Below, piece after piece: positions 1,129 through 63,775 of a stretch of 64,000 bases of DNA. Within the stretch, counting starts at the first letter, position 1. Each line of letters begins with the position of its first letter. Position numbers and translations under genes: made by a program. The notes beneath the pieces were generated by a model. That model searched no databases, was not told the origin of the DNA, and was given only the letters and a program-made list of their open reading frames with translations. The stretch comes from a virus. The DNA lies in IMG/VR virus record IMGVR_UViG_3300027763_000034, positions 32,001 through 96,000 of that record; one strand, given 5' to 3'.

Positions 1129-2232
1129 CTACTTTTCTTCTAGTGATTTTACTCTTGCTGTAAGTTCTTGTACCGCTTTAATTAATGGAGAAATAAATTC
1201 TTCGTATCTTAATGCTTGTTGTCCTTCTGCATCATTCACATCAGAAATTACCCAGCCGCCGAAGTCAGCAATATTGACTTCATCTAAGACAGACTTTACC
1301 TCTTGTGCAATTAATCCGTAATGTGTTCTATCTCCACCAATTTTATTATATTTAACTGGGTTTAATTTATTAATAAAATTTAATCCAAGGTCAGATGTCA
1401 ATATATTTTCTTTTGTTCTTTCATCTGATATAACAGTTGCTGCTGAGTTTAAATATATGTTTTTCCATCCTCTAGTTACGTTATCTGTTCCAGAGTTAAT
1501 TGGACCAAGCAAACCTAAAGTAAATGTATTTGTTGATAGTGGATACCAGGCAGAGTTGACTCCAGTTGTAGATGTTGCTGTTGTTTGTAGCGCAATTCTT
1601 GTTGCAATTGGATCAATAACAGCATTTGATCCTGCTGCGCCAGTTGCGCCAGTTGCACCAGTTGCGCCAGTATCTCCACGAGGAATTGTAAAATTTAAAA
1701 TAACATTGCTAGATGTTCCAGTATTTGTAACAATAGCGTTTGTTCCTGCTGCACCTGTAGTTACTGGGCTAGCAATAGTAATTGTTGCTGCTGCATCACC
1801 TTTTGGACCAGTTGCTCCAGTTGCTCCAGTTGCTCCAGTTTCTCCAGTTGGTAAAACTAAATTTAAAACTTGAGATGGAGATGTGCCAGTAATTGTTGCA
1901 GAAGCTAGTGCGCCAGATACAACTGTTCCAATTGTTAAAACATTTGATGGACCAGGGCCACCAATTACTCCATCTTGACCTTTTGGAATATTAAATGTTA
2001 AAGATTGTGATGGAGATGTTCCGCTAATAGTTACCGAAGCATTTTGACCAGCATTTATTGTATTTGTTGAAGCAATGGTTAAAACGTTTGAAGGGCCTGT
2101 TGCTCCTTGGGGTCCAGGATGAGCAGCAATATATGTAGCAATATCATTACCTAAAATACCAAGATCTCTAGGTACATCGGGAGAATCCGAGTAACTTGGG
2201 AAGTGCCATCCATTAACGCCTGTAGTTGCCAT
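1129..2232 (-). CDS. Tail fibre with collagen-like repeats and C-terminal intramolecular chaperone (peptidase S74)
   Basis: GAT/GPQ triplets; SDERTKENI...LNPVKY...GLIAQEV...YEEFISPLIKAVQEL. Confidence 0.85.
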   Translation of the reverse strand: MATTGVNGWHFPSYSDSPDVPRDLGILGNDIATYIAAHPGPQGATGPSNVLTIASTNTINAGQNASVTISGTSPSQSLTFNIPKGQDGVIGGPGPSNVLTIGTVVSGALASATITGTSPSQVLNLVLPTGETGATGATGATGPKGDAAATITIASPVTTGAAGTNAIVTNTGTSSNVILNFTIPRGDTGATGATGATGAAGSNAVIDPIATRIALQTTATSTTGVNSAWYPLSTNTFTLGLLGPINSGTDNVTRGWKNIYLNSAATVISDERTKENILTSDLGLNFINKLNPVKYNKIGGDRTHYGLIAQEVKSVLDEVNIADFGGWVISDVNDAEGQQALRYEEFISPLIKAVQELTARVKSLEEK

Positions 2233-2239
2233 TTTTTAA

Positions 2240-2911
2240 TTATACCATTAAGCCTTTATACACAGAAAGGTGTGAGGTATATCTTTTGCCAGACAAAACT
2301 TCATTTACCTTATGAAGATACGGCTCTTGACTTGGAAATATTATTAGGCTGCCCTCTTGTGGCTTTATTGACAAGCCTTGGTTTGGAAACTCTATCTCGC
2401 CACCCTCATAGTCATCATTCAGATAAGCTATCATTGAGAATGCTAGTGTTGTATGTCCGTCATAGTTATCACAATGTGGCCCCATGCCAGAACCTGCTGC
2501 CCATTCTCTAATTGGAATTTCTCCCATTGGAAGTATATAATTTTTTCCGTCAATATTTCTTGACTTTAAATAATTATCAAGACACATTTCAAATGCCATT
2601 TTTAAACTATTACTTATGTAAAGAATTTTTTGATCTAGTCTGGAACCAGAATTATTTTCTTTTATGCTATTAGTTAAAACATTTTTATTTTTTCCGTATA
2701 CAACATTGACATCATCACTTGCTGTCCATGGGCTCCACTGTGTTATTTTTGAATAACTATCTTGGCTTTCATCGACCTCATTGATAAAATCAACTAGTTC
2801 TTTTGGATAGCTTAAAACATTTTTAAAATGCCATATGCCATCTTCTAAAGCATTTGGTATGAACATGTGATACATGTCATTTGGATTAAAATCTTTTTTA
2901 TCTTCTATCAT
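2240..2911 (-). CDS. 2OG-Fe(II) oxygenase (prolyl 4-hydroxylase-like)
   Basis: HCD...YLNDDYEGGEIEF...H.V..V.SG.RY. Confidence 0.85.
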   Translation of the reverse strand: MIEDKKDFNPNDMYHMFIPNALEDGIWHFKNVLSYPKELVDFINEVDESQDSYSKITQWSPWTASDDVNVVYGKNKNVLTNSIKENNSGSRLDQKILYISNSLKMAFEMCLDNYLKSRNIDGKNYILPMGEIPIREWAAGSGMGPHCDNYDGHTTLAFSMIAYLNDDYEGGEIEFPNQGLSIKPQEGSLIIFPSQEPYLHKVNEVLSGKRYTSHLSVYKGLMV

Positions 2912-3669
2912 TAGATATTCTCTACTTCTGAGGCTGGGACTGGTGCTCCGTACGGAGTTAGTCTTAATCCTTTGTCACGGATTTCTTTCCATTCTTCTTG
3001 CTCGCCTTTTTGATGTGCTCTGACTTTAGCTAACTCGTCTGCCCATTCATCTCTAATTTCTTGAGGATAATCAGACTCTTCTCTATCGTCCCAAAAAGAT
3101 CCAAGCGTATATCTTGGCGCTCCTTTTACTACGGTAACCTCATGCATGTTTTTATGACCACCATGAAATATTAAAAATGACCCAGCTTTTGGAATAACTT
3201 CAAGTGGGGTTTTTCCATGTCTTGCATCAAACTTTAATGTTCCGCCTTCAAAATCATCATTTAAATATAAAAAACCAGCATATCTACTTCGTGTAAACGC
3301 ACCCATTTTTCCTTCTGAGTCGCTGTTGTCTGAGTGCTTTGGTGCAAAAGCTCCTGGAAGCCATCTTTGCACATGAAAGCTAATCTGAGACATGTCTTCG
3401 AAAGACTTATTTGCTACATCTGCAGCAGCCTGTCTAAATCTATTTTTAAGATCAGTAAACCATGTAGGGCTTAAATTAAATTCAGCAAGCACTGCTTCAC
3501 CATCAAATGGGTATCTGGCAGAGTATGACTCATAAAAAGATATTCCCTTCCAGTAGTCATCGTCAGTCTCAGCAAGTTTTTCTAGCAGCCCAATGACAGA
3601 TTTGCATTCTTCTTTTGATATAAAATCTTCATAGAGATCTATATCTTCTGTTAGTTTAGTAAGCTTCAT
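2911..3669 (-). CDS. 2OG-Fe(II) oxygenase (P4H-like)
   Basis: HSD...YLNDDFEGG...HEV...RY. Confidence 0.85.
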   Translation of the reverse strand: MKLTKLTEDIDLYEDFISKEECKSVIGLLEKLAETDDDYWKGISFYESYSARYPFDGEAVLAEFNLSPTWFTDLKNRFRQAAADVANKSFEDMSQISFHVQRWLPGAFAPKHSDNSDSEGKMGAFTRSRYAGFLYLNDDFEGGTLKFDARHGKTPLEVIPKAGSFLIFHGGHKNMHEVTVVKGAPRYTLGSFWDDREESDYPQEIRDEWADELAKVRAHQKGEQEEWKEIRDKGLRLTPYGAPVPASEVENI

Positions 3670-4490
3670 TACATACCCCCTGGCCCAGATTTATCTCCAG
3701 ATAGATCATCATATTTGGTCGGAACCCCATCCTGTAAGTATCTCATGTTTCTAGGATTGTCGTGCTTTAATCTTTCAAATTCTTTTTTCATCCAATTAGC
3801 GGCTCCTAATTTCTTTTGATTTTCGAGCCATTCTGGGTGTCCGTCGTAAGGGTACATAACAAAATTTCTTACAAAGAATTTTTCTCCATTATATATTGTT
3901 TTTACGCCATGAAAATATGGTTCATCTGATGGAAAGACAAGGATGTCTCCAGCCTGTGGTTTATGATTTACCCTATCCCCATTAACAAAAAATTCAATAT
4001 CTCCGCCGTCGTAATTATCATTTATATACATTGTGCAGGTTAATTGAAATTTAGATCCTGGCATGTCTCTTTCTGAAATAATAAAATCTGTGTGATATTG
4101 CATAGTCATTTTATTATCTAGGACATCAACTTGATCCGTATACTTTGAAAAAGAACATCCGCTAAAATGCCAATTAGGTTTTAATTCAATGCCGTGCCTA
4201 TTAATATAATCAAGCAATACTGCATCATAGGCGGACTGAATTTGATCCACAAAATCTTTTTCTTCTATAAACATTGGGTCGGACTTTTGAGTATCATCTA
4301 CTTCTAATGAATTTTTTGCTTGGGAATAGGTGCCAAAATGTGCCCAAGGGTCCCAAGTCTTTAAAAGGTACTTGCCTTCAGATGTCTGCTCTGATTTTTT
4401 CATTGTCTCATACAGGGCCTGCGGATCTTTCAAAACATTTCTGTACACATCCACTTTTGGATATAGCTCTACGTATTCTAAATTTGTCAT
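3669..4490 (-). CDS. 2OG-Fe(II) oxygenase (P4H-like)
   Basis: HTD...YINDNYDGG...HGV; probable start ATG 4490 overlapping the upstream stop (ATGA). Confidence 0.85.
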   Translation of the reverse strand: MTNLEYVELYPKVDVYRNVLKDPQALYETMKKSEQTSEGKYLLKTWDPWAHFGTYSQAKNSLEVDDTQKSDPMFIEEKDFVDQIQSAYDAVLLDYINRHGIELKPNWHFSGCSFSKYTDQVDVLDNKMTMQYHTDFIISERDMPGSKFQLTCTMYINDNYDGGDIEFFVNGDRVNHKPQAGDILVFPSDEPYFHGVKTIYNGEKFFVRNFVMYPYDGHPEWLENQKKLGAANWMKKEFERLKHDNPRNMRYLQDGVPTKYDDLSGDKSGPGGM

Positions 4491-5164
4491 GGCTGTCTTT
4501 CTCCTGTGTGTTTCATTATCGTCCAAAAAAATGGCGAAGTAAATCTATTTCCTGCTGTTACTGGTCTTACCCCGTGTGTGTAGTGCATGTCTCCTGGGAA
4601 GAAATATGCTGCGCCTGCTTTTGGCTTAAATTCAATTCCGTGCTGTGGGAAGTATAGCTCTCCGCCTTCATAGTCATCATTAAAATAAAATAGTCCTGCT
4701 AAGTCATACCATGGAAAATCATTTGGTCTTCCCTTTTCTATTCCAGTGTGAAACTCTTTGTCTGCGTGTGGTTCTTGTCTTGCCCCAACTGGCCATCTAA
4801 CAATTGCTGGGCCTGTCTCTTGAGCATCAACAGAAAAAAATTTATCCACTTCAATTTTAAGTCTTGCTATCATTGAGTTAATTAATTCTAATATTGTTGG
4901 GTCAGACTCCATTAAAGAGTTGTGAGTGCAAACCCTATCTTTCCATATATTTGCATCATACAAAACTAATCCGTCTTCATCAACATGAGTTTCGGTTTGA
5001 TCCCAAACTTTATTGTTTAAAGCAAAACTTATAAGCCTTTGCCTTTCATCTTCAGTCAAAAAATTTTCTAGCTCTATAATATTATCTGAGGATGAGCCAA
5101 AGAAACCTGAAGGCGTTATTGACTTCGGTGCATATAGCTGTATGTCTTTATTTGCAATTTTCAT
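4487..5164 (-). CDS. 2OG-Fe(II) oxygenase (P4H-like)
   Basis: HAD...YFNDDYEGGELYF...HGV...RF. Confidence 0.85.
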   Translation of the reverse strand: MKIANKDIQLYAPKSITPSGFFGSSSDNIIELENFLTEDERQRLISFALNNKVWDQTETHVDEDGLVLYDANIWKDRVCTHNSLMESDPTILELINSMIARLKIEVDKFFSVDAQETGPAIVRWPVGARQEPHADKEFHTGIEKGRPNDFPWYDLAGLFYFNDDYEGGELYFPQHGIEFKPKAGAAYFFPGDMHYTHGVRPVTAGNRFTSPFFWTIMKHTGERQP

Positions 5165-5208
5165 TAGTTCTCTTTCTGTTAATACTACAATATAATTTTA
5201 CCATGCTA

Positions 5209-5913
5209 TTAATCTTTATTATCAATGACTTTTAATCTTATTGCTTTTACTTGGTGCTTCCCTAAAGATACTCCAAGGTGGTCTGTAGCATTACGGTAAA
5301 AATTAGTCCATTTCCCAACCGCATTTGATTCCGACCCAGCTTTGCTATATTCTTTAGAATCAAATGTTCTTTCTGGCATTTTTGAAGAGTCAAAAAACTC
5401 TATTTCGGAATCCTGCAAAGCTTCAAGGTTTATTGGCATTATTGAAAATATGGGCGTGTTAGCTTTTATTGTTATTTCAACATTTGGCCTAGTTACTCGG
5501 ATCGCACAAGATAAATCTCCACTATAAAAAGAAGAACTCATTATTGTTGTAAATGGCTCATACCCGTCTACAAAATTATTAGGGACTGGCATAGTGAGGA
5601 GGCTGTGGTTTTCATCTGTTTTAAATGTTATGCCAGTGTTAAAACTTACCGTAGCATTTGATCTTTCGGCATAAGCATATTTATCTCCAGATAATATTTT
5701 TACGTGATCTGGTGTGGAATCAGATATTCCGTCCCATATAAAAGTTATATCTTCTGGGAATGAGATAGACCAGCCCATTTGATTTGGTAATCCAACTGGA
5801 AAACATTTATATGCGTGAGCTTCCCAAGTTTCATCCATCCAATCTCTTTTTACTGATAAGGGGAGGACTGTGGCTGAAATATCTTTTGCTCTATAGGCTT
5901 TGAGTTTTACCAT
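5209..5913 (-). CDS. DUF6065-like protein
   Basis: KRDWMD...HAYKCFP...NQMGW motif; sits among oxygenases. Confidence 0.6.
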   Translation of the reverse strand: MVKLKAYRAKDISATVLPLSVKRDWMDETWEAHAYKCFPVGLPNQMGWSISFPEDITFIWDGISDSTPDHVKILSGDKYAYAERSNATVSFNTGITFKTDENHSLLTMPVPNNFVDGYEPFTTIMSSSFYSGDLSCAIRVTRPNVEITIKANTPIFSIMPINLEALQDSEIEFFDSSKMPERTFDSKEYSKAGSESNAVGKWTNFYRNATDHLGVSLGKHQVKAIRLKVIDNKD

Positions 5914-6565
5914 CGTTTAATCTTTTTTCTACAAGTGCACGATACTCATCATTATGAGTGTTATCGTTATAATCTAGCATTGTAACTATAGAATATTTTT
6001 TGCCTTCTTCTACTGGCATTGCAACATGAGAATAGATATATGTGGACGGGAATATGTATAAGTCACCAGCTTTTGGCTTAATTTTTAAGTCTAATTTTGG
6101 GAACCATAGCTCTCCGCCAGTGTAATCATCATTTGGATACGCTACCAGAGACACCGTTGCTGTATAAGAAAACCCGTGGTCGGCATGCTCTTGAAAATGT
6201 TGTCCTGGACCATAAGAAATAAAATTCATTACTTCCCAAAAATCCATTCTTACGCTATGAAATGAACAATAGTCTTCTGCTGCTGGCCCCTGTGTATCTT
6301 TGGCATCTTGCCATATATCATTTATTCGTCTATCAAAATCATTTCTTATTGTTGGCACTGGGCCTATCTTTACATCTTGGCAATCTCTATAGCTTGGCCT
6401 TGTTTCATCATAGCCAACTGTTGCGCCTCTCCAGTTGTACTGCCCATTGCTTTCATTAACAACAGAGACAAGCCTTTCCATTAAATTTAGTTCTGGCTTA
6501 ACTACGTCTCTATATACCCATAACCCAGGAAATAGGATTTCTTTGCTTGACCAAGTTTGATTCAT
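5891..6565 (-). CDS. 2OG-Fe(II) oxygenase (P4H-like)
   Basis: HAD...YPNDDYTGGEL...SHVA...KY. Confidence 0.85.
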   Translation of the reverse strand: MNQTWSSKEILFPGLWVYRDVVKPELNLMERLVSVVNESNGQYNWRGATVGYDETRPSYRDCQDVKIGPVPTIRNDFDRRINDIWQDAKDTQGPAAEDYCSFHSVRMDFWEVMNFISYGPGQHFQEHADHGFSYTATVSLVAYPNDDYTGGELWFPKLDLKIKPKAGDLYIFPSTYIYSHVAMPVEEGKKYSIVTMLDYNDNTHNDEYRALVEKRLNDGKTQSL

Positions 6566-6578
6566 TTTTCTCTTTCTC

Positions 6579-7157
6579 TCATATATAGTTTATCATATCA
6601 TCTGGTAATATGTCAATAATTAAATGCACTCTATCAAAATCAGTTGGGTTAGAAACGGAGTGTGGCATTTGATTATTAATTTCATACCATCCGCCCTCTT
6701 CCATATGTATTGTATTGTCCATTACAGTAAATGTTATTAAATCTTTTGTTATTATGGGTACATGAACTCTTCTAGAATAGTGAAGCAGGGCTCCACCATC
6801 AACATGCTTTGGTATATAAGAATTAGAATTTAATTTAACAAATTCACACCTTATTATTTTGCCAGAATAGTATGACTCTAAATCAATAAAAATTTTTTTA
6901 AGCTCTTGATCTGATAGACTATTTTTAAGAAGATTTACATAATTGGTTTCAACTGGGTCGCCAACAATCCAATCGTAATCTGTTTCACAAATTCTAAACA
7001 TCTGTGTGCTTTTGTGAGTATACCCTTTTTCTTGCCTGCTTTGATCAATCAGCCATTCATTTGAAAAATTAGAAATTTCATCTTTAATATGATTTATTTC
7101 AAAATGACCTAGGTGAAGTATTGACCACTCAGTATTCTTTTTTAATCTTTTGTACAT
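6579..7157 (-). CDS. Aspartyl/asparaginyl/proline beta-hydroxylase family protein
   Basis: IPKHVD...RVHVPI...EINNQMPHSVSN...RVHLIID. Confidence 0.8.
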   Translation of the reverse strand: MYKRLKKNTEWSILHLGHFEINHIKDEISNFSNEWLIDQSRQEKGYTHKSTQMFRICETDYDWIVGDPVETNYVNLLKNSLSDQELKKIFIDLESYYSGKIIRCEFVKLNSNSYIPKHVDGGALLHYSRRVHVPIITKDLITFTVMDNTIHMEEGGWYEINNQMPHSVSNPTDFDRVHLIIDILPDDMINYI

Positions 7158-7836
7158 ATTCGTATACCTCCATGTCCAATAAATTAATTTCTTCTATTCT
7201 ATTTATATGTCTTTTATCAAATTTAATTCCTATATCATAAGAGGAATTTGCTTTGTCGGAATGTTTAAATGTTGAAAATCCAAATTGTTTTAATAAGCTT
7301 TTATTTAAATCTATTTTAAATAAATCTAGTTCTTCTAGCGTATAAGCTTTCATTTTTTCAAGACTTGAAATTACATTTTTTATATCTAATTTATATCCTT
7401 CTAAATACCAACCGCTGCTAACTGTATTTTGAAATTGTAATATATCCTGATTAAATTTTTCTATATTTAATTTACCAGTTAAAAATTTTGACTGCAGGTT
7501 GGATTGCATTTCGCATTCTTCCCCATAAAGCCATCTATCTAATTTTTCTTCAGCTTCTTTTCCCGCTCTTATTGGTCCTGTTGTATATTTAAAATAGCTT
7601 ATAAATCTTTCTACTGGGTCTCTAACTATTGTAAAAATTTCTGGACTGTCCATATAATCTAAAGGCATTAAGCCAAAATGACCACCAACAAACCTACTTT
7701 TTTTTATTTTTTCTACATCTATTTTATTCCTATTGGATATACAATGCTCTACCCCATTTGATATCAAATGGGGTATTACATTATTCTTTATGTATATACC
7801 AGATGTTCTTGGAATATGCAGATGGTATATTGACAC
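7129..7836 (-). CDS. Sulfotransferase-family protein
   Basis: HLHIPRTSG (PAPS 5' motif), GHF, VRDPVERFISYF. Confidence 0.75.
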   Translation of the reverse strand: MSIYHLHIPRTSGIYIKNNVIPHLISNGVEHCISNRNKIDVEKIKKSRFVGGHFGLMPLDYMDSPEIFTIVRDPVERFISYFKYTTGPIRAGKEAEEKLDRWLYGEECEMQSNLQSKFLTGKLNIEKFNQDILQFQNTVSSGWYLEGYKLDIKNVISSLEKMKAYTLEELDLFKIDLNKSLLKQFGFSTFKHSDKANSSYDIGIKFDKRHINRIEEINLLDMEVYEYVQKIKKEY

Positions 7837-9128
7837 TAAAAAGCTTTACGGTTGTGTACTACTAGATCTCCCGCAATTAAAATATCATTTGGAGAAGCAT
7901 CAAATTCATAAACGGTTCTTTCTTCATTTATAATTTTTGTTGATTCTACTACTACCTCTTCAAAAATATTTTCATTATTTTTTACAAATATTGAATCTCC
8001 TGGTTCAAGAATTCCTGTTGTGCTAAAGAAATATGTGTCATTTTTCTTTGCAAGAATTGTTTGTTCTAGTGAGAATCTCTTAGAAGAGTCATCATTAATA
8101 ATCATAGTTGCATCTTTTATAGAAGGCTTTACGGCTCTAATTTCAGTTTTTACTAGATGTATATTATTAATTGAATCTGTAGACCATGTATAAGGATCGA
8201 TTTCAAATTCATCAAGCAATCCATCCCATGTTGCTGACCATACTTGGTCACCTACTTGAATTTCTTTTGCTTTTTTAAATTCTACTGTGTCATTTGGACC
8301 CACTGTCATTACAAGAGTGTCTTGATCAATGCAATAGAACCCTGGTGGGGCAAAGAACCCTGGTGGGGCAAAGAACCCTGGTGGGGCAAAGAACCCTGGT
8401 GGGGCAAAGAACCCTGGTGGGGCAAAGAATGATGGTGGTGCGAAGAACCCTGGTGGGGCAAAGAACCCTGGTGGGGCGAAGAATGATGGTGGTGCGAAGA
8501 ACCCTGGTGGGGCAAAGAAGCTTGGCGGGAAGAACGGTGCCAATGTTGTAACAGAATTTGATGATGCTGAATATGAAGAGTCTCCGTTACCATTTGTAGC
8601 AAGTACTTGATATGACTGTGCAGTGTTTGCTGTTTCTGGTACAGTGTGGCTTACTCCAGCTATTGAATATATTGGGCCATCGCTTGACTTAAGCTTGTAT
8701 CCAGTTATTGCTTTTCCTCCATCAGCTGGTGCAGACCAGGTAACATAGTCTTGGTTAATCTGTGCTGTAGCTGTTGGTGCTCCTGGGGTAGAAGGAACGG
8801 TTGTTGCGGTAACTGAGGCTGAAGCGGTTGATGGCTCGGAATCTCCAAATGTATTTTTTGCAACAACTGTATAGGTGTAAGGTGTATTAGAAAGAAGACC
8901 AGTGACTGTAATAGGAGAAGAAGTTCCTGTTCCAGTTCGACCTCCTGGGCTAGCTGTTACAACATACTCTGTTGCTGCGTATGGCCCATCTGGTGTAAAC
9001 GATACTGTTGCTGCTCCATCATTAAATGGACGGTTGGTTCCAACATCTGTTGCGCTTACATTGATTGGCTTAAATGGCATCAGGAAGTCATTCGAGCCCT
9101 GGCTCATTCTACCTACTTGTTTTGACAT
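7836..9128 (-). CDS. Fibronectin type III x2 + (FFAPPG/S)10 repeat + C-terminal Hint autoprocessing domain
   Basis: Fn3 motifs (ITVTGL..NTPYTYTVVAKN, WSAPADGG); Hint from C-IDQDTLV...IQVGDQV to VYEFD...GDLVVHN. Confidence 0.8.
   Translation of the reverse strand: MSKQVGRMSQGSNDFLMPFKPINVSATDVGTNRPFNDGAATVSFTPDGPYAATEYVVTASPGGRTGTGTSSPITVTGLLSNTPYTYTVVAKNTFGDSEPSTASASVTATTVPSTPGAPTATAQINQDYVTWSAPADGGKAITGYKLKSSDGPIYSIAGVSHTVPETANTAQSYQVLATNGNGDSSYSASSNSVTTLAPFFPPSFFAPPGFFAPPSFFAPPGFFAPPGFFAPPSFFAPPGFFAPPGFFAPPGFFAPPGFFAPPGFYCIDQDTLVMTVGPNDTVEFKKAKEIQVGDQVWSATWDGLLDEFEIDPYTWSTDSINNIHLVKTEIRAVKPSIKDATMIINDDSSKRFSLEQTILAKKNDTYFFSTTGILEPGDSIFVKNNENIFEEVVVESTKIINEERTVYEFDASPNDILIAGDLVVHNRKAF
8340..8519 (-). 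repeat. 10 x 18-bp tandem repeat encoding FFAPP[G/S]
   Basis: gaaccctggtggggcaaa units seen directly. Confidence 0.95.
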
Positions 9129-15096: not shown

Positions 15097-16647
15097 TTAT
15101 GCATAACAAGTGTCTCTTGATCCGTCTGAGTTATATCGAGCATCGCAAGCACCTACGCTATAGCATGTTGAATAGTTTGTACTTGCTGAGTTTGTTACAT
15201 CGTATGACTTGCAAGCATATTTTCCAGTAGCAGTTTTAGTAACATTTGGACAATTAGCATTTGTAGTTGTTCCGCTTAGTGAACCAGCTCTTGTAGATCC
15301 TCCTGGACAGGACTCTGGTGCAAAGTGATAGCTCATTGTAGGTGTTGTTGTGTAATTACATACACATGCAACATAAGTACATGCTCGTGACTGATAGAAT
15401 GGACCTTGTTCTGTTATAAGTGCTGTTGAGCAGTCTGCATACCGATAAGTTCTTGTTCTTCCAGCGGAAGTTCCGCCTTCTAATGAATTACTTCCACAAA
15501 CGCCAGACCACGAAACATTATATGTGTAGTCCGCATCTACCCAACCTGCAGTACATGTAGGAACACAATATCTTGATGTTGAATATGAACCATATTCCAT
15601 TATATTATCTTGAGTACAATCTGCATATCGATACAGTCTGTATCTCCAGCTATAAGTTCCAGACTCTGAATTGTTTGAGCAGGTTCCGCTCCAAGTTGCT
15701 CCACCGTATGTCCAGTCTGCATCTACCCATGCAGCAGTGCATCCTAAAGTAACAGTAGCAGTACCAGGTGAACCAGTTTTATTAGATGTCATTACAGATG
15801 TTTGTACTCCATAGCCTTGATAAAGGGTAGATCTTGGATAAACAGTAAAATAATTTCCTTCATTTCCAGTAAGAATTGACCATGTGTAATTTAGCTGTGT
15901 TGAGGGAACGTTTATTGTTGTAGTCTCATTATTTCCATATTTAACAACGTCATAAGAAACGGCTCCAGGTGCTGCCGTCCAATACATGTAGACTTGCTTG
16001 TTTGTATTTATTGGAGTTACTGTTACAGTAGCACTGCCAGATGTTCCAGTTCCAGTAAATGCTCTGTTTCCCTGATCTGTAACTGATCCATTGTTTGTTG
16101 TTACAGAATATGTTGTTGCATTTGACGATGCCGTCCAAGAACCGCTATATGAAAATCCAGAATTTGAAATGCTTACAGATGGCTGTGTCGGAGTTGCAGT
16201 TGTTTCTGATGCCGTCATTGTTGATACAACTGGAAGAACTATAGTTCCAATATCTCCAGTTACAGAAACATTTCCTCTACCATTAATTGCAGTGACTGTG
16301 CAACTTAAAATTTGATCAATGTCTGCTACTGCTGCTGTATACGTTTGTGATGTTGCTCCAGATATTGGTGAAGAACCACGCTTCCATTGATATGTATAAG
16401 AAGCTGGGGCGTATGCTGGTTCTGATTTCCATAAAGAGCTAACAGTTAAAACGGCACCAACTTGACCTCTATATGTGGTGCCAGTATGTGTAAATGTTGG
16501 TGTTCCTAATGATTGTGGTAAATTTGGATATGCAAGTTGCCAGCCATTATTATAAACATAGGCTTTTTTAGCAGCAACAAATTGTGATCCAGTATTTATT
16601 TTTAGATCTTTTGCCTCTTGCCAATTTGAGCCATCATTTATTTTCAT
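15097..16647 (-). CDS. Ig-like virion protein with Cys-rich, thrombospondin-like C-terminal repeats
   Basis: YTYQWKRG...ISGATSQTY Ig motif; two CTA.WVDAD...WSG.C...R.YRYADC...SR.C repeats. Confidence 0.6.
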   Translation of the reverse strand: MKINDGSNWQEAKDLKINTGSQFVAAKKAYVYNNGWQLAYPNLPQSLGTPTFTHTGTTYRGQVGAVLTVSSLWKSEPAYAPASYTYQWKRGSSPISGATSQTYTAAVADIDQILSCTVTAINGRGNVSVTGDIGTIVLPVVSTMTASETTATPTQPSVSISNSGFSYSGSWTASSNATTYSVTTNNGSVTDQGNRAFTGTGTSGSATVTVTPINTNKQVYMYWTAAPGAVSYDVVKYGNNETTTINVPSTQLNYTWSILTGNEGNYFTVYPRSTLYQGYGVQTSVMTSNKTGSPGTATVTLGCTAAWVDADWTYGGATWSGTCSNNSESGTYSWRYRLYRYADCTQDNIMEYGSYSTSRYCVPTCTAGWVDADYTYNVSWSGVCGSNSLEGGTSAGRTRTYRYADCSTALITEQGPFYQSRACTYVACVCNYTTTPTMSYHFAPESCPGGSTRAGSLSGTTTNANCPNVTKTATGKYACKSYDVTNSASTNYSTCYSVGACDARYNSDGSRDTCYA

Positions 16648-16654
16648 TTATATC

Positions 16655-18826
16655 CTAATATTGTATATAAATATCTCCAGCAACCATGCCTGTAGTAGGA
16701 AGTGTGCCAGTATTATTATAGAATGTTTTTGCTCCTGCTGATATTGTTGTTGAGCCTCCAAGTGCTACTGCCGTTCCATTTATAGTAATAGATGAATTTG
16801 CTAACTTATTGTTGGCTATTGAGCCAGCAAGCATTGTATTTGTTACAGTTGCAGAATCTAAAAGTGTAACTGCTGTTCCAGATATTTTAGATTTATCAAT
16901 TGCTGCTGAAGCACTGATATCTGAATTAACAATAGTTCCATCAGCAATCATTGTTGATGTTATTGTTCCAGAAGGAGCAGAAAATGTTCCAGTAAATGAT
17001 GCATTATTAATTGGTGCATAGGCTGCTAAATTAAGAGTTGCCCACGATGGAGATGTACCATCAGTCATTAAATATTTTCCAGCATTGTTAAGTTGTGCTG
17101 GGAGAATTGAAATACCAGATACTGTTGCACCAGAAAAATCTACTGTTCCAGTAAATACTGGTGAAATCTTTGGTGCATAAGTTGATGATGCTGTTGATAT
17201 AGATAATTTAGTATCTAATGCGGATTGTGTAGCAGTTGATATTGGTTTTGATTCATCAGTTGTATTATCTACATTACCAAGACCAATCATTGTTTTTGTA
17301 ATACCATTTACTGTTCCAGTAAATGTTGGGGAAGCAATTGGTGCATATGTAGATGCGGCAGTTGCAGAAGATAATTTAGTTCCAACTAATGTTGTTAATG
17401 CTGTCCCTGCAGATTGATCTGTTGATATGTAATCTGCTATTTCTTTAAGTGTATCAAATGAAGATGGTGCTCCATTTACAACATTTGCTATAGCTGTGGT
17501 TATGTCAGATGTTCTTGCAATTGTTGAAGGTATAACTGTATCTAGTATTTTTCCACTAGATAATCCAATTTTTGCATATCCTCCTGGCAGATCAGCATCT
17601 GCTTCAGAAACATATGCATCTAATGTATTACCAAGTCCTGCTGATGTTAAGAAATGTGAATTTGCATATGCTAATAAATCATCGTTAGCTTGATTTAAAT
17701 TAACATATACATCTGTAAATCTTTGGTTAGTAGCTGAGATTGCTCTTGCATCTGTGAAATAAAGATTATTTGAGCCTTCTGTTATTGCATCTGTTGTCCC
17801 AGAAAATGTTGAACTTCCTGAACCAGCTGGACCCTGTGGACCAGTTGCGCCAGTTAATCCTCGTTCACCTTGTGGGCCTGTTGCGCCAGTGTCGCCTTTT
17901 AATCCCTGTGGACCAGTTGCACCAGTTGCGCCAGTGTCGCCTTTTAATCCCTGTGGACCAGTTGCGCCAGTTGCGCCAGTTGCCCCAGTAGCACCAGTGT
18001 CACCTCTTAATCCTTGTGGGCCTACGTCTCCACGAGGAATTGTAAAATTAAATAACGGTGCAGTTGGTGTTCCAGTATTTGTAATAGAAACAGATGTTCC
18101 TGGGTTTCCAGTTGAAACTGTTCCAAGCGTAATTGTAGATGATGCTCCACCTGAAGACAGTCCAGAAACAGCTGCATTAATTGCAGTATTCCTATTTGTA
18201 ATTTCAGTTGATATTGCTGTATTTATTGCAGTATTTCTATTAGATATTTCTAATGCAATTTTATTATCTGTATAAACATTTGCTGATGAGGTTGCTAATG
18301 TTACTGCTGCTTCGTCTTTAGAATCTGCTGAGGTTCCTGCCGCTGCTAAAGTTTCTATTTTTACTGCAGAAGTTTTGCTACTTGCATCGGCTGCTGCTGT
18401 TGCAATAGCTTCTGATTTGGCAGCAGATATAGCTGTATTTCTATTTGTAACTTCCGTTGCAATTGCTGCAGATATTGATGATGCTACTGCATCTATTGCT
18501 CTTTGGTTTGTAAAATATTTATTGCTACCTTCTGATACAGAGGTTGTTGATAGCGTTGCAATTGCTGTTGCTAAATCTGCAGATACGGACATTGAGTCTG
18601 GAAGTTGTGAGGTGGGTATTTTACCAAGAGCATTTAGTGTTGCTACTCCATTGGCCTCTCCAGCTTTAAATGCATAGGAAGTTGTTGCATTCCATCTTGA
18701 GCCATTACCAATTTTAAACTTTAGGCTGTCTGTCTCAATTCCTAGTTCACCTGATAATAGTATTGGGTTGTTGGACACCCAGTTTGCTGCTGTGTCTCTT
18801 CTAAGTTGTATTCTTAATGATGCCAT
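16655..18826 (-). CDS. Tail fibre-like protein, Mtd-type N-terminus plus collagen-like repeats
   Basis: [25 protein letters not shown]; [15 protein letters not shown] repeats; probable start MASLRIQ. Confidence 0.75.
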
Positions 18827-18827
18827 T

Positions 18828-19286
18828 TTATGAACCTCCTGCATCAACAATTATACCATCGTTGTCTGCAGAACTTCCTCCTTCTAAAACTTCGTCTTGT
18901 ACTACTGTAACGCTGCCTTCTGGGTTTCCGCCATCAAGCAATGTTTGGTTTTCAAATGTTCCGCCTTGGTTTGATGTTGAAGGACTTTGTCCGTCGTATC
19001 CAATTACAAGTGGTAATACTAGATCGGGAGAATCTGAAGTATTTGTTTCCTTAAATGTAATCTTATTCTGAACATCAATTGTATGAACATTTCCATCAAA
19101 TGTGTGAGTATGCATATAAAATGGTGTTGGGTCTGTGCTCGGCGGGGTAAGCTCTACCCAAACCATACCATTGTATATTCTTAAATTCTTACTTACTACA
19201 TTGAAGTATATATCTCCAACAGTGGCTATGTCGGGGTTCTCCATAGAAGTAAGAAGATTAAGTGCAACCTTCATTTGTCTGGACAT
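18828..19286 (-). CDS. Putative virion structural protein
   Basis: GDIYFN...LRIYNG..W motif; structural context. Confidence 0.55.
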
Positions 19287-58184: not shown

Positions 58185-58485
58185 GCTTTTCCTTTATACG
58201 TCTCCAGACATCTTTTGTCTTATGGGCATTTCTTAGTTTATCATGGGAGCCAGAGTTTAAATAAACCCCTCCCCAGACACCATAATCACTATTGGCAACC
58301 CCATTATCATAGCATAGCTTTATGACTGGGCATGACAGGCATGCCTCATCAATACTTTTTGCTATGTTAACATCAGCCTCATATTTATCAAAAAACAGAT
58401 TAGTATCCATTCCAAGGCACAACGCAAGCTTATACCAATCTACATTATCTTCATCTACGTTTAAACTATTTAAAATATTTGACAT
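58174..58485 (-). CDS. whiB: WhiB family Fe-S transcription factor
   Basis: W..LALC...FF...C..CPV...C...GVWGG; probable start MSNILNS. Confidence 0.85.
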   Translation of the reverse strand: MSNILNSLNVDEDNVDWYKLALCLGMDTNLFFDKYEADVNIAKSIDEACLSCPVIKLCYDNGVANSDYGVWGGVYLNSGSHDKLRNAHKTKDVWRRIKEKHVY

Positions 58486-63001: not shown

Positions 63002-63130
63002 TTTTGCTCCTTTTAAGCGAGTTAGTTTAGCATCCCCATAAGGCGGATGTAAAATAATTATAGCATATTTAATACTAGATTTCCAGCCTGTGCCATGACT
63101 AATAAACATGAAAATGCTACAATCTATAGT

Positions 63131-63775
63131 ATGAAATCATTTTATCATTTGCATGTCAGCAGGACTAATGGAAGGTTTTTGTTTAAGTACGTACTTAAAG
63201 ATCTTATTAAGTATTCAAAAACACAAGAAATAGATTTTCTTTGGCCAGAAGTTATTCCAGATTATTGGACACACCATGGTTGGAATAATCTGATATCTGA
63301 TGACACATACATAATATGTGCACTGAGGGATCCAGTGGAAGCAATAATAAGTTATAACCTATCATTTAGTGCAATTGTAGACAAAGAAGATTTCTTTAAT
63401 AGAATAGACCTAGTTACCAACATTCAGTCTAGAAGCTTTATAGAGTGGACAAACAATAAAATTGATCCACATAAAGATGTTGAATTAGATAGAAATCTAA
63501 TACTATCAAGACTTAACAGAGTAGACATGTTGATAGACTCAAAAGATATTAATATAAATACATACAACAAAATAAAGAAAAAAATTGCTAGTGATCTAGG
63601 TTTTAATGATCTTCAATATTTTGATAATCTAGAGGATACAAACGATTTTAGGTCTAATAAGGTTAAAGAATTTTATGACTCTTTAAATGCAGAAGAAATA
63701 AATAAAATCAAAGAGGCTAACTATATGGATGTAGAGCTATATGAAGCTGCTAGGAGTCTTTTCTTCCCCATCTAA
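63131..63775 (+). CDS. Sulfotransferase-like protein
   Basis: HLHVSRTNG, LRDPVE..IS, N.MD.ELY; leaderless start. Confidence 0.6.
   Translation: MKSFYHLHVSRTNGRFLFKYVLKDLIKYSKTQEIDFLWPEVIPDYWTHHGWNNLISDDTYIICALRDPVEAIISYNLSFSAIVDKEDFFNRIDLVTNIQSRSFIEWTNNKIDPHKDVELDRNLILSRLNRVDMLIDSKDININTYNKIKKKIASDLGFNDLQYFDNLEDTNDFRSNKVKEFYDSLNAEEINKIKEANYMDVELYEAARSLFFPI

Follow-up and report, generated by a model that had tools for sequence, protein, structure and literature searches.

What does a bacteriophage do with six 2-oxoglutarate (2OG)-Fe(II) oxygenases encoded in a single gene run behind a repetitive protein? To our knowledge, such enzymes of phages, which are most familiar from cyanophages, have been called ‘auxiliary metabolic genes’ for two decades without a substrate. 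We addressed this question in a 64,000-nucleotide window (the whole stretch of DNA analyzed here), bases 32001-96000 of the 116,155-bp IMG/VR record IMGVR_UViG_3300027763_000034, which CheckV rates as complete. On the minus strand, from 9128 to 2240, nine closely packed or overlapping genes begin with a precursor gene, whose product joins two fibronectin type III (Fn3) domains, a Pro-Phe repeat tract and a C-terminal Hint domain. A sulfotransferase, an AspH-type oxygenase, the prolyl 4-hydroxylase (P4H)-like oxygenase a, a DUF6065 protein and the P4H-like oxygenases b-e follow (Table 1). We found that, in this very common lake-phage group, six oxygenases stand behind a protein whose proline content predicts them. 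The tract is the likeliest substrate of the hydroxylase set, because in related phages this set was found only with Pro-Pro-rich repeats. The wider reading, in which the phage produces both a structural-type protein and its decorating enzymes, is offered tentatively, as a plausible account that could well be wrong.

A sequence-only reading of this DNA had described ten FFAPP[G/S] repeats abutting the first Cys of a Hint domain, a terminal His-Asn followed by Arg, and a precursor gene that overlaps the sulfotransferase gene. This description held in each detail, including the position of the Cys codon at 8333 (8333-8331). Translation placed the ten units in exact register at aa 204-263 (8 with Gly and 2 with Ser), after a degenerate FFPPS unit and before the Phe-Tyr that ends the tract ahead of Cys266. 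Phe (23) and Pro (22) account for most of its 67 residues. In the tract DNA, Tandem Repeats Finder reported 10.4 tandem copies of an 18-bp unit (87% matches, score 292), far above chance, and FF.PP was not found elsewhere in any frame of the 116-kb genome. The precursor ends in VVHN-RKAF, with Arg directly after His-Asn, and its TAG stop shares one base with the GTG start of the sulfotransferase gene.

The tract does not have the collagen pattern of Gly at each third residue. Its register is (F-F-A)(P-P-G), with Gly at each sixth residue only, and this sixth position varies among relatives. Across 925 units from 62 proteins, Phe occupied position 1 in 92% and position 2 in 98%, and position 3 was Ala, Ser or Gly in 88%, while position 6 was varied (Gly 49%, then Ser, Arg, Ala and Asn). 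Tract copy number ranged from 6 to 35. The units stay conserved even among relatives that share as little as 35% identity elsewhere in the protein, and the tract is thus under strong selection.

We identified 206 precursor relatives in viral contigs and retained 80 for comparison. No precursor relatives were found in 185,579 prokaryote genomes, and cultured phages gave no DNA match and no protein match to the precursor or DUF6065. The Fn3 half as sole query recovered close relatives only. Every retained locus with enough flank showed the gene order precursor, oxygenase a, DUF6065, oxygenases b-e, which bears out the conserved linkage of precursor and enzymes. A sulfotransferase gene was present in 24 of the 80 retained loci and an AspH-like gene in 22, all of them nearer relatives of the window.

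The comparison was then widened by 71 loci around an FGFSP-type member, and all loci were scored with hidden Markov models of the cassette genes. The check set beforehand, on whether the enzyme set varies with the repeat sequence, was made in 75 distinct genes having at least 7 kb downstream. We observed a Pro-Pro-rich tract with four or more oxygenases in 34 of the 75, and a Pro-Pro-poor tract (FGFSP, FGFTP or similar) with two or fewer oxygenases in 40. The one apparent exception was an upstream gene in a genome whose battery sits further on. DUF6065 proper followed the same division and was missing beside Pro-Pro-poor tracts. In a tree built from non-repeat columns, Pro-Pro-rich and Pro-Pro-poor states interleaved, with four changes in Pro-Pro content and three in the battery. 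Three independent pairs could be compared: two agreed, none disagreed and one had no battery difference. These data suggest that the battery tracks the Pro-Pro content of the tract; the support is real but thin.

The downstream genes listed in the sequence-only reading were recovered by Pfam in the same order, and the matches of all eight exceeded curated cut-offs. The five P4H-like proteins scored 37.5-48.6 bits against PF13640 (cut-off 27), with E values of 3e-9 to 3e-12 for oxygenases b-e against 2OG-FeII_Oxy_3. DUF6065 scored 93.3 bits against PF19541 (cut-off 26.6), and the sulfotransferase 27.3 bits against PF03567 (cut-off 22), with both 3′-phosphoadenosine 5′-phosphosulfate (PAPS)-binding-type motifs there. 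The HxD...H motif and a basic residue about 10 positions later were intact in all six oxygenases. The five P4H-like paralogues were mutually 23-30% identical, yet each had its own orthologue in relatives, which suggests that the duplication is old and that each copy has been retained. The nearest solved structures to the P4H-like set were protein hydroxylases: Bacillus anthracis P4H (3e-6, family profile), prolyl 3-hydroxylase 1, lysyl hydroxylase LH3 and the P4H of the chlorovirus PBCV-1, the last of these (5c5t) being one of the solved structures related to oxygenases a and e. The AspH-like oxygenase was nearest in the PDB to L-proline cis-4-hydroxylase (4p7w, 1e-3). Hydroxylation of Phe had also been raised, and we found nothing in the cassette enzymes pointing to it. 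That the oxygenases act on the tract is the reading we favor, with modest confidence.

We next consider the Hint domain. Pfam by itself was weak here (Intein_splicing, E 0.011). A 40-sequence profile searched against the PDB gave the bacterial intein-like (BIL) domain 2lwy as top match (4e-6), followed by inteins. The AlphaFold2 model of the domain (predicted local distance difference test, pLDDT, 89) matched many inteins, BIL domains and Hedgehog 1at0 in Foldseek with probability 1.00; Tetrahymena BIL2 was second in the list, a Clostridium BIL domain was also matched, and TM-scores normalized to the targets reached about 0.8. These data confirm a Hint fold, closest to BIL domains, and, together with Arg427, support the proposal of a Hint domain without a +1 nucleophile.

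A profile search of 1.84 billion representatives returned 3,495 Hint relatives, and the following residue counts refer to the best 150, aligned. Among these, the domain lay almost always at the extreme C-terminus. Position 1 was Cys (92) or Ser (14) and no other residue in the 106 representatives covering it, and the first residue of block B was Ser or Thr in 145 of 147. The fourth block B residue, canonically His, was Gln in 59, His in 56 and Glu in 29; the window copy has Gln356 and thus reads S-L-E-Q rather than TxxH. The last two residues were His-Asn in most relatives, and a Lys followed within two residues in 84 of 89, a motif we write as HN-x-K (Lys at +2 in the window). Because the position-1 nucleophile is invariant, the alignment argues for (thio)ester formation at the junction as the conserved Hint function, and we hold (thio)ester chemistry at position 1 to be probable. 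Canonical splicing is excluded because there is no +1 Cys, Ser or Thr (Arg427 follows Asn426) and hardly any C-extein, only four residues lying beyond the domain. What remains is cleavage or transfer of the N-terminal part, following BIL/Hedgehog logic (PMC5874633).

The domain shares with BIL and Hedgehog proteins (2lwy, 6tmm/6y75, 1at0) the Hint fold, an N-terminal Cys, a terminal His-Asn, the lack of a +1 Cys, Ser or Thr, and a variable surface-type protein as carrier. Its terminal His-Asn, lack of a C-flanking nucleophile and variable, non-housekeeping carrier are the sequence features of A-type BIL domains, as defined in PMC5874633. It differs in its extreme C-terminal position, its block B Gln and the absence of a Hedgehog sterol-recognition region, the protein stopping four residues after the Hint domain. 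The window family also differs in always being preceded by a short aromatic/Pro repeat and in its conserved Lys at +1/+2.

One alternative is that the window Hint domain is not an autoprotease: a Hint ancestor would have been co-opted, and the domain kept as a structural or receptor-binding tip or as a folding cap. The block B Gln in place of His would fit this idea, as would the clades without a terminal His-Asn or without the whole domain, the placement of the domain where fiber proteins bear receptor-binding or chaperone domains, and fast Hint divergence (24-35% between clades). Position 1 is nevertheless Cys or Ser without exception and Ser/Thr is kept at block B position 1, and active inteins lacking the block B His are on record in references cited by PMC5874633 and PMC8616854. 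The Hint-less relatives (L031:10001-10801, L043 and L047; 265-266 aa) end just past the tract (...FFAPPGFWD-stop), precisely at the junction, as expected if the mature product normally ends there. They keep the oxygenase battery, and an HD-domain/DUF6817 gene lies inside their cassette. We regard a Hint domain without autoprocessing as unlikely. The Peptidase_S74 chaperone domains offer a parallel for removal, as C-terminal domains of fiber-module proteins expected to be removed after folding, and an S74 fiber adjoins the cassette; the two share neither fold nor chemistry, S74 domains using a Ser-Lys dyad and Hint domains a thioester.

The Hint family follows varied aromatic/Pro repeats (FFxPPx, FFPFFPP, FGFSP, FGFTP, YSFTP, polyproline and GFYG). 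In FGFSP-type phages (L090:1232-2704, L095:73-1512), the Cys of another Hint protein is preceded by a Thr/Gln/Asn repeat (NTQNTQ...) and a Gly run, and a single 2OG oxygenase gene lies directly after this Hint gene; the Hint cap is therefore not confined to Pro/aromatic repeats. Some Hint-family representatives of 1100-1350 aa (P0200, P0214, P0223) contain six to eight Hint stretches each, a tandem layout that recalls polyprotein or BUBL-like loci. In several relatives (L066:1556-4729, L070:2418-5045, L081:1884-4445), a second Cys-rich fiber-block protein of 850-1050 aa ends in an FFxPPx tract and a Hint domain. Its N-terminus resembles a 516-aa open reading frame of the window (15097-16647), itself without a tract.

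Across about 150 loci, all 42 sulfotransferase genes started −3 to +25 nt from the stop of a Hint gene, 24 after Pro-Pro-rich tracts with the battery and 18 after FGFSP tracts without it. Because these 18 loci lack the battery, the sulfotransferase goes with the repeat-Hint protein rather than with hydroxylation. In the sequence-only reading the repeat was hydroxylated and then sulfated. This order is no longer the preferred reading, as the sulfotransferase was equally present where the battery is lacking, and sulfation of hydroxyproline was dropped. Unit residues at positions 3 and 6 showed no visible tracking of sulfotransferase or AspH presence. That the sulfotransferase acts on the precursor protein remains a tentative assignment, about which we are slightly more doubtful than confident.

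The sulfate supply may also be encoded by the phage. A second, distant sulfotransferase-like gene adjoins an adenosine 5′-phosphosulfate (APS)-kinase-like gene just beyond the window end. The N-terminus of the kinase-like protein matched TIGR00455 (1.6e-16, under the equivalog cut-off) and its C-terminal part is weakly nucleotidyltransferase-like, so that the 253-aa fusion is a possible compact PAPS synthase. In eleven large records, this genome included, the APS-kinase-like gene was present in 6 of the 7 with any sulfotransferase-like gene but in none of the 4 that lack one (Fisher's exact test, P about 0.015, kinship ignored); the sole sulfotransferase-bearing record without it was a 69%-complete fragment. 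A phage-borne PAPS supply for the phage sulfotransferase is a reasonable reading of this co-occurrence. The pairing suggests that a phage can bring a sulfation pathway of its own. The sulfotransferase-Hint adjacency, the APS-kinase-like co-occurrence and the HN-x-K motif are new here.

The slot after the precursor is variable, with a PF11397 glycosyltransferase gene in one relative and a short-chain dehydrogenase or unassigned genes in others. In that relative, which is complete (L050:11891-12895), the PF11397 ‘GlcNAc’ glycosyltransferase gene (1e-15) lies in the slot held here by the sulfotransferase, and it recurs solely in two near-identical fragments. PF11397 is the family of the Skp1 hydroxyproline GlcNAc-transferase. 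The L050 gene is a hint towards hydroxyproline chemistry, a lead rather than a pattern. In the Skp1 pathway of Dictyostelium and Toxoplasma, prolyl hydroxylation by PhyA is followed by Gnt1 (PMC3515798), a cytoplasmic P4H step and then a transferase on hydroxyproline. Skp1 is modified at a single regulatory Pro as opposed to a polymeric tract, PF11397 occurs in one relative only, and the second-step enzyme in the window is a sulfotransferase whose presence is independent of the battery.

A second alternative is that the enzymes are not directed at protein at all but form a metabolic or nucleotide/DNA-modifying set, whose position beside the repeat gene is inherited synteny. In its favor, the AlphaFold2 model of DUF6065 (pLDDT 92.6) has a dUTPase/dCTP-deaminase-like barrel fold (VIA-align Z about 10; the top 21 matches all belong to that superfamily). 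The closest cultured-phage homologues of the oxygenases are cyanomyovirus 2OG oxygenases with no assigned role, every locus comes from one lineage, and oxygenase e gave a weak Tet_JBP match (E 0.041). Against this, the genes overlap and are translationally coupled within a fiber operon, and the nearest solved relatives are peptidyl-Pro/Lys hydroxylases, with no nucleic-acid oxygenases among them. Battery loss also coincides exactly with the loss of Pro-Pro from the tract, in clades that interleave, and DUF6065-like U2 genes stay beside repeat-Hint genes even without the battery. We consider a set that is not directed at protein to be improbable.

The U2 family (240-250 aa; L018:13352-14104, L106:12064-12780) is a distant DUF6065 relative (Pfam 1e-5) that lies between DUF6065 and oxygenase b in 43 of the first 80 loci and is missing from the window. 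It often persists, commonly in two copies, right after FGFSP-type Hint genes without the battery. DUF6065 itself had 880 homologues, most on phage-sized contigs; in the 185,579 prokaryote genomes we found it on two short contigs of metagenome-assembled genomes only, apparently binned phage DNA, and our literature search returned no paper mentioning it. We had taken DUF6065 for a cupin or a hydroxylase substrate-binding module, whereas its fold match was dUTPase-like.

Collagen is not an obligate substrate, because five near-complete cassette-bearing relatives (86-100% estimated completeness, four of them at least 90%) had no match to the collagen family PF01391. A third alternative, in which the oxygenases modify other fiber-block virion proteins (collagen-like fibers or a Cys-rich tip protein) and the repeat protein is a mere neighbor, would suit the collagen-repeat fibers of the window (Table 1), the LH3 and collagen P4Hs among the nearest solved relatives and the Cys-rich EGF modules on which AspH enzymes classically act, but it is quite improbable in view of these five relatives, of the lack of Gly-X-Y runs within 10 kb in most loci, and of a battery that follows the Pro-Pro content of the adjoining tract.

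In the mechanism we propose for a decorated structural protein, the P4H-like enzymes would act in the host cytoplasm and hydroxylate prolines in the tract's Pro-Pro(-Gly) units. The five kept paralogues may serve different positions or regiochemistry, or form a hetero-oligomer. The Hint domain would form a thioester at Tyr265|Cys266 and remove itself, so that the Fn3 protein would end in the decorated tract, its C-terminus either free or bearing an adduct. The sulfotransferase, translationally coupled to the precursor and fed by the phage APS-kinase-like gene, would sulfate the precursor independently of proline hydroxylation. We infer the chemistry, the cleavage and, from gene position, the presence of the precursor in the virion.

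Several points weigh against this account. There were about three independent switches of repeat and battery, too few for a sign test, and all loci belong to one broad phage lineage (ribonucleotide reductase 79-89% identical). Module exchange could carry neighbors together without any enzyme-substrate relation. The oxygenases resemble P4Hs distantly (E 1e-5 to 1e-6), and their closest cultured-phage relatives are functionally unassigned cyanomyovirus oxygenases at 21-31% identity. The predicted nucleotide-enzyme fold of DUF6065 fits a protein-hydroxylation pathway poorly. Gln356 replaces the catalytic His of block B, which makes the autoprocessing competence of the window copy uncertain. In some sulfotransferase-bearing relatives, L025 for example, the tract lacks Ser, Thr and Tyr, so the sulfation site may lie elsewhere.

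The nearest precedent is PBCV-1, whose P4H acts on the virus's own Pro-rich repeats, for example (Pro-Ala-Pro-Lys)n (Eriksson et al. 1999, as summarized in PMC3634087). Both systems combine a virus-encoded P4H-type 2OG oxygenase with non-collagen Pro-rich tandem repeats. The window differs in having five diverged paralogues with AspH-like, DUF6065 and sulfotransferase genes in one operon headed by the putative substrate, and in a repeat that is aromatic (FFxPPx) and Hint-capped; its host is bacterial. The sequence-only reading had called the module RiPP-like (ribosomally synthesized and post-translationally modified peptide), and this stands as analogy only. As in RiPP clusters, the gene of the modified polypeptide heads an operon of tailoring enzymes and the accessory array differs among relatives. 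The ‘precursor’ here is a 430-aa multidomain, structural-type fiber-module protein with two Fn3 domains and a Hint domain, not a short leader-core peptide; its release would be by its own Hint domain, and no leader or recognition element was identified by Pfam, the one means by which we sought them.

A bolder version makes the Hint domain a ligase, in which a lysine amine resolves the Tyr265|Cys266 thioester and a hydroxylated, sulfated Pro-Phe polymer is covalently grafted onto the particle, with sulfate from the phage PAPS supply. This idea comes from Tetrahymena BIL2, which joins the C-terminus of its N-flank to a lysine amine by an isopeptide bond (PMC8616854), and from the conserved Lys after His-Asn. 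The acceptor would be that Lys, or a Lys of another virion or host-surface protein. We think this version very unlikely to be right; if true, phages would have a new kind of appendage, tailored by enzymes and attached covalently.

The top-ranked literature on phages contained no title describing such a cassette. If our account of decoration is true, the precursor would be the first structural protein of a bacteriophage with enzymatic hydroxylation and possibly sulfation. Hint domains would gain a new use, and the system would yield orthogonal proline hydroxylases and self-cleaving tags.

Table 1. Features of the precursor-oxygenase locus and related genes. Coordinates are those of the window unless marked as genome.
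Feature	Position	Strand	Description	Match
Precursor gene	7836..9128	minus	430 aa; conserved N-terminal segment, two Fn3, Pro-Phe tract, C-terminal Hint	
Two fibronectin type III domains	8541..9041	minus	about aa 30-196	Pfam fn3 1.8e-10, two stretches
Repeat tract	8334..8534	minus	aa 199-265; FFPPS + ten FFAPP[G/S] + FY	
Hint domain	7851..8333	minus	aa 266-426; Cys266 nucleophile, block B S-L-E-Q (353-356), terminal His425-Asn426	
Tail after terminal Asn	7839..7850	minus	four residues, RKAF	
Sulfotransferase	7129..7836	minus	235 aa, GTG start; motifs HIPRTSG and RDPVERFISY	Sulfotransfer_2 PF03567 5e-6
AspH/cupin-type 2OG oxygenase	6579..7157	minus	192 aa; H118-x-D120...H166...R176	Asp_Arg_Hydrox PF05118 4e-11
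P4H-like oxygenase a	5891..6565	minus	224 aa; H127-x-D129...H180...K189	2OG-FeII_Oxy_3 1.6e-12
DUF6065 protein	5209..5913	minus	234 aa; 23-nt overlap with oxygenase a	PF19541 2e-26
P4H-like oxygenase b	4487..5164	minus	225 aa, best conserved of set; H133-x-D135...H197...R207	2OG-FeII_Oxy_3
P4H-like oxygenase c	3669..4526	minus	285 aa from TTG (alternative ATG 4490); H145-x-D147...H206...K216	2OG-FeII_Oxy_3
P4H-like oxygenase d	2911..3669	minus	252 aa; H112-x-D114...H176...R186	2OG-FeII_Oxy_3
P4H-like oxygenase e	2240..2911	minus	223 aa; H146-x-D148...H200...R210	2OG-FeII_Oxy_3
Peptidase_S74 fiber	1129-2232		adjoins cassette	weak collagen-repeat match
Collagen-repeat fibers	16655-18850			
WhiB-family gene	58264-58437 (genome 90264-90437)	minus		1.5e-11
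Second, distant sulfotransferase-like gene	63095..63775	plus	226 aa; both PAPS motifs align with cassette copy	BLASTP vs cassette copy: 25% identity, 3e-8
APS-kinase-like gene	genome 96020-96781 (L160:2020-2781)	minus	253 aa; just beyond window end	APS_kinase 2.6e-15

The nine-gene run is flanked by tail-fiber genes, with Mtd_N/collagen-type fibers upstream and the Peptidase_S74 fiber downstream, and we read it as a late, fiber-module operon of an uncultured ~116-kb lake phage. Promoter and terminator scans gave site counts no higher than in shuffled sequence, so operon boundaries were not derivable from them. Because the genome carries a WhiB-family gene, the host is probably an actinobacterium. 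After the APS-kinase-like gene, outside the window (L160:2778-5942, genome 96777-99941), we observed a luciferase-like monooxygenase fragment, a staphylococcal-nuclease homologue, a CHAP-domain protein (likely a lysin) and a carboxymuconolactone-decarboxylase-family gene.

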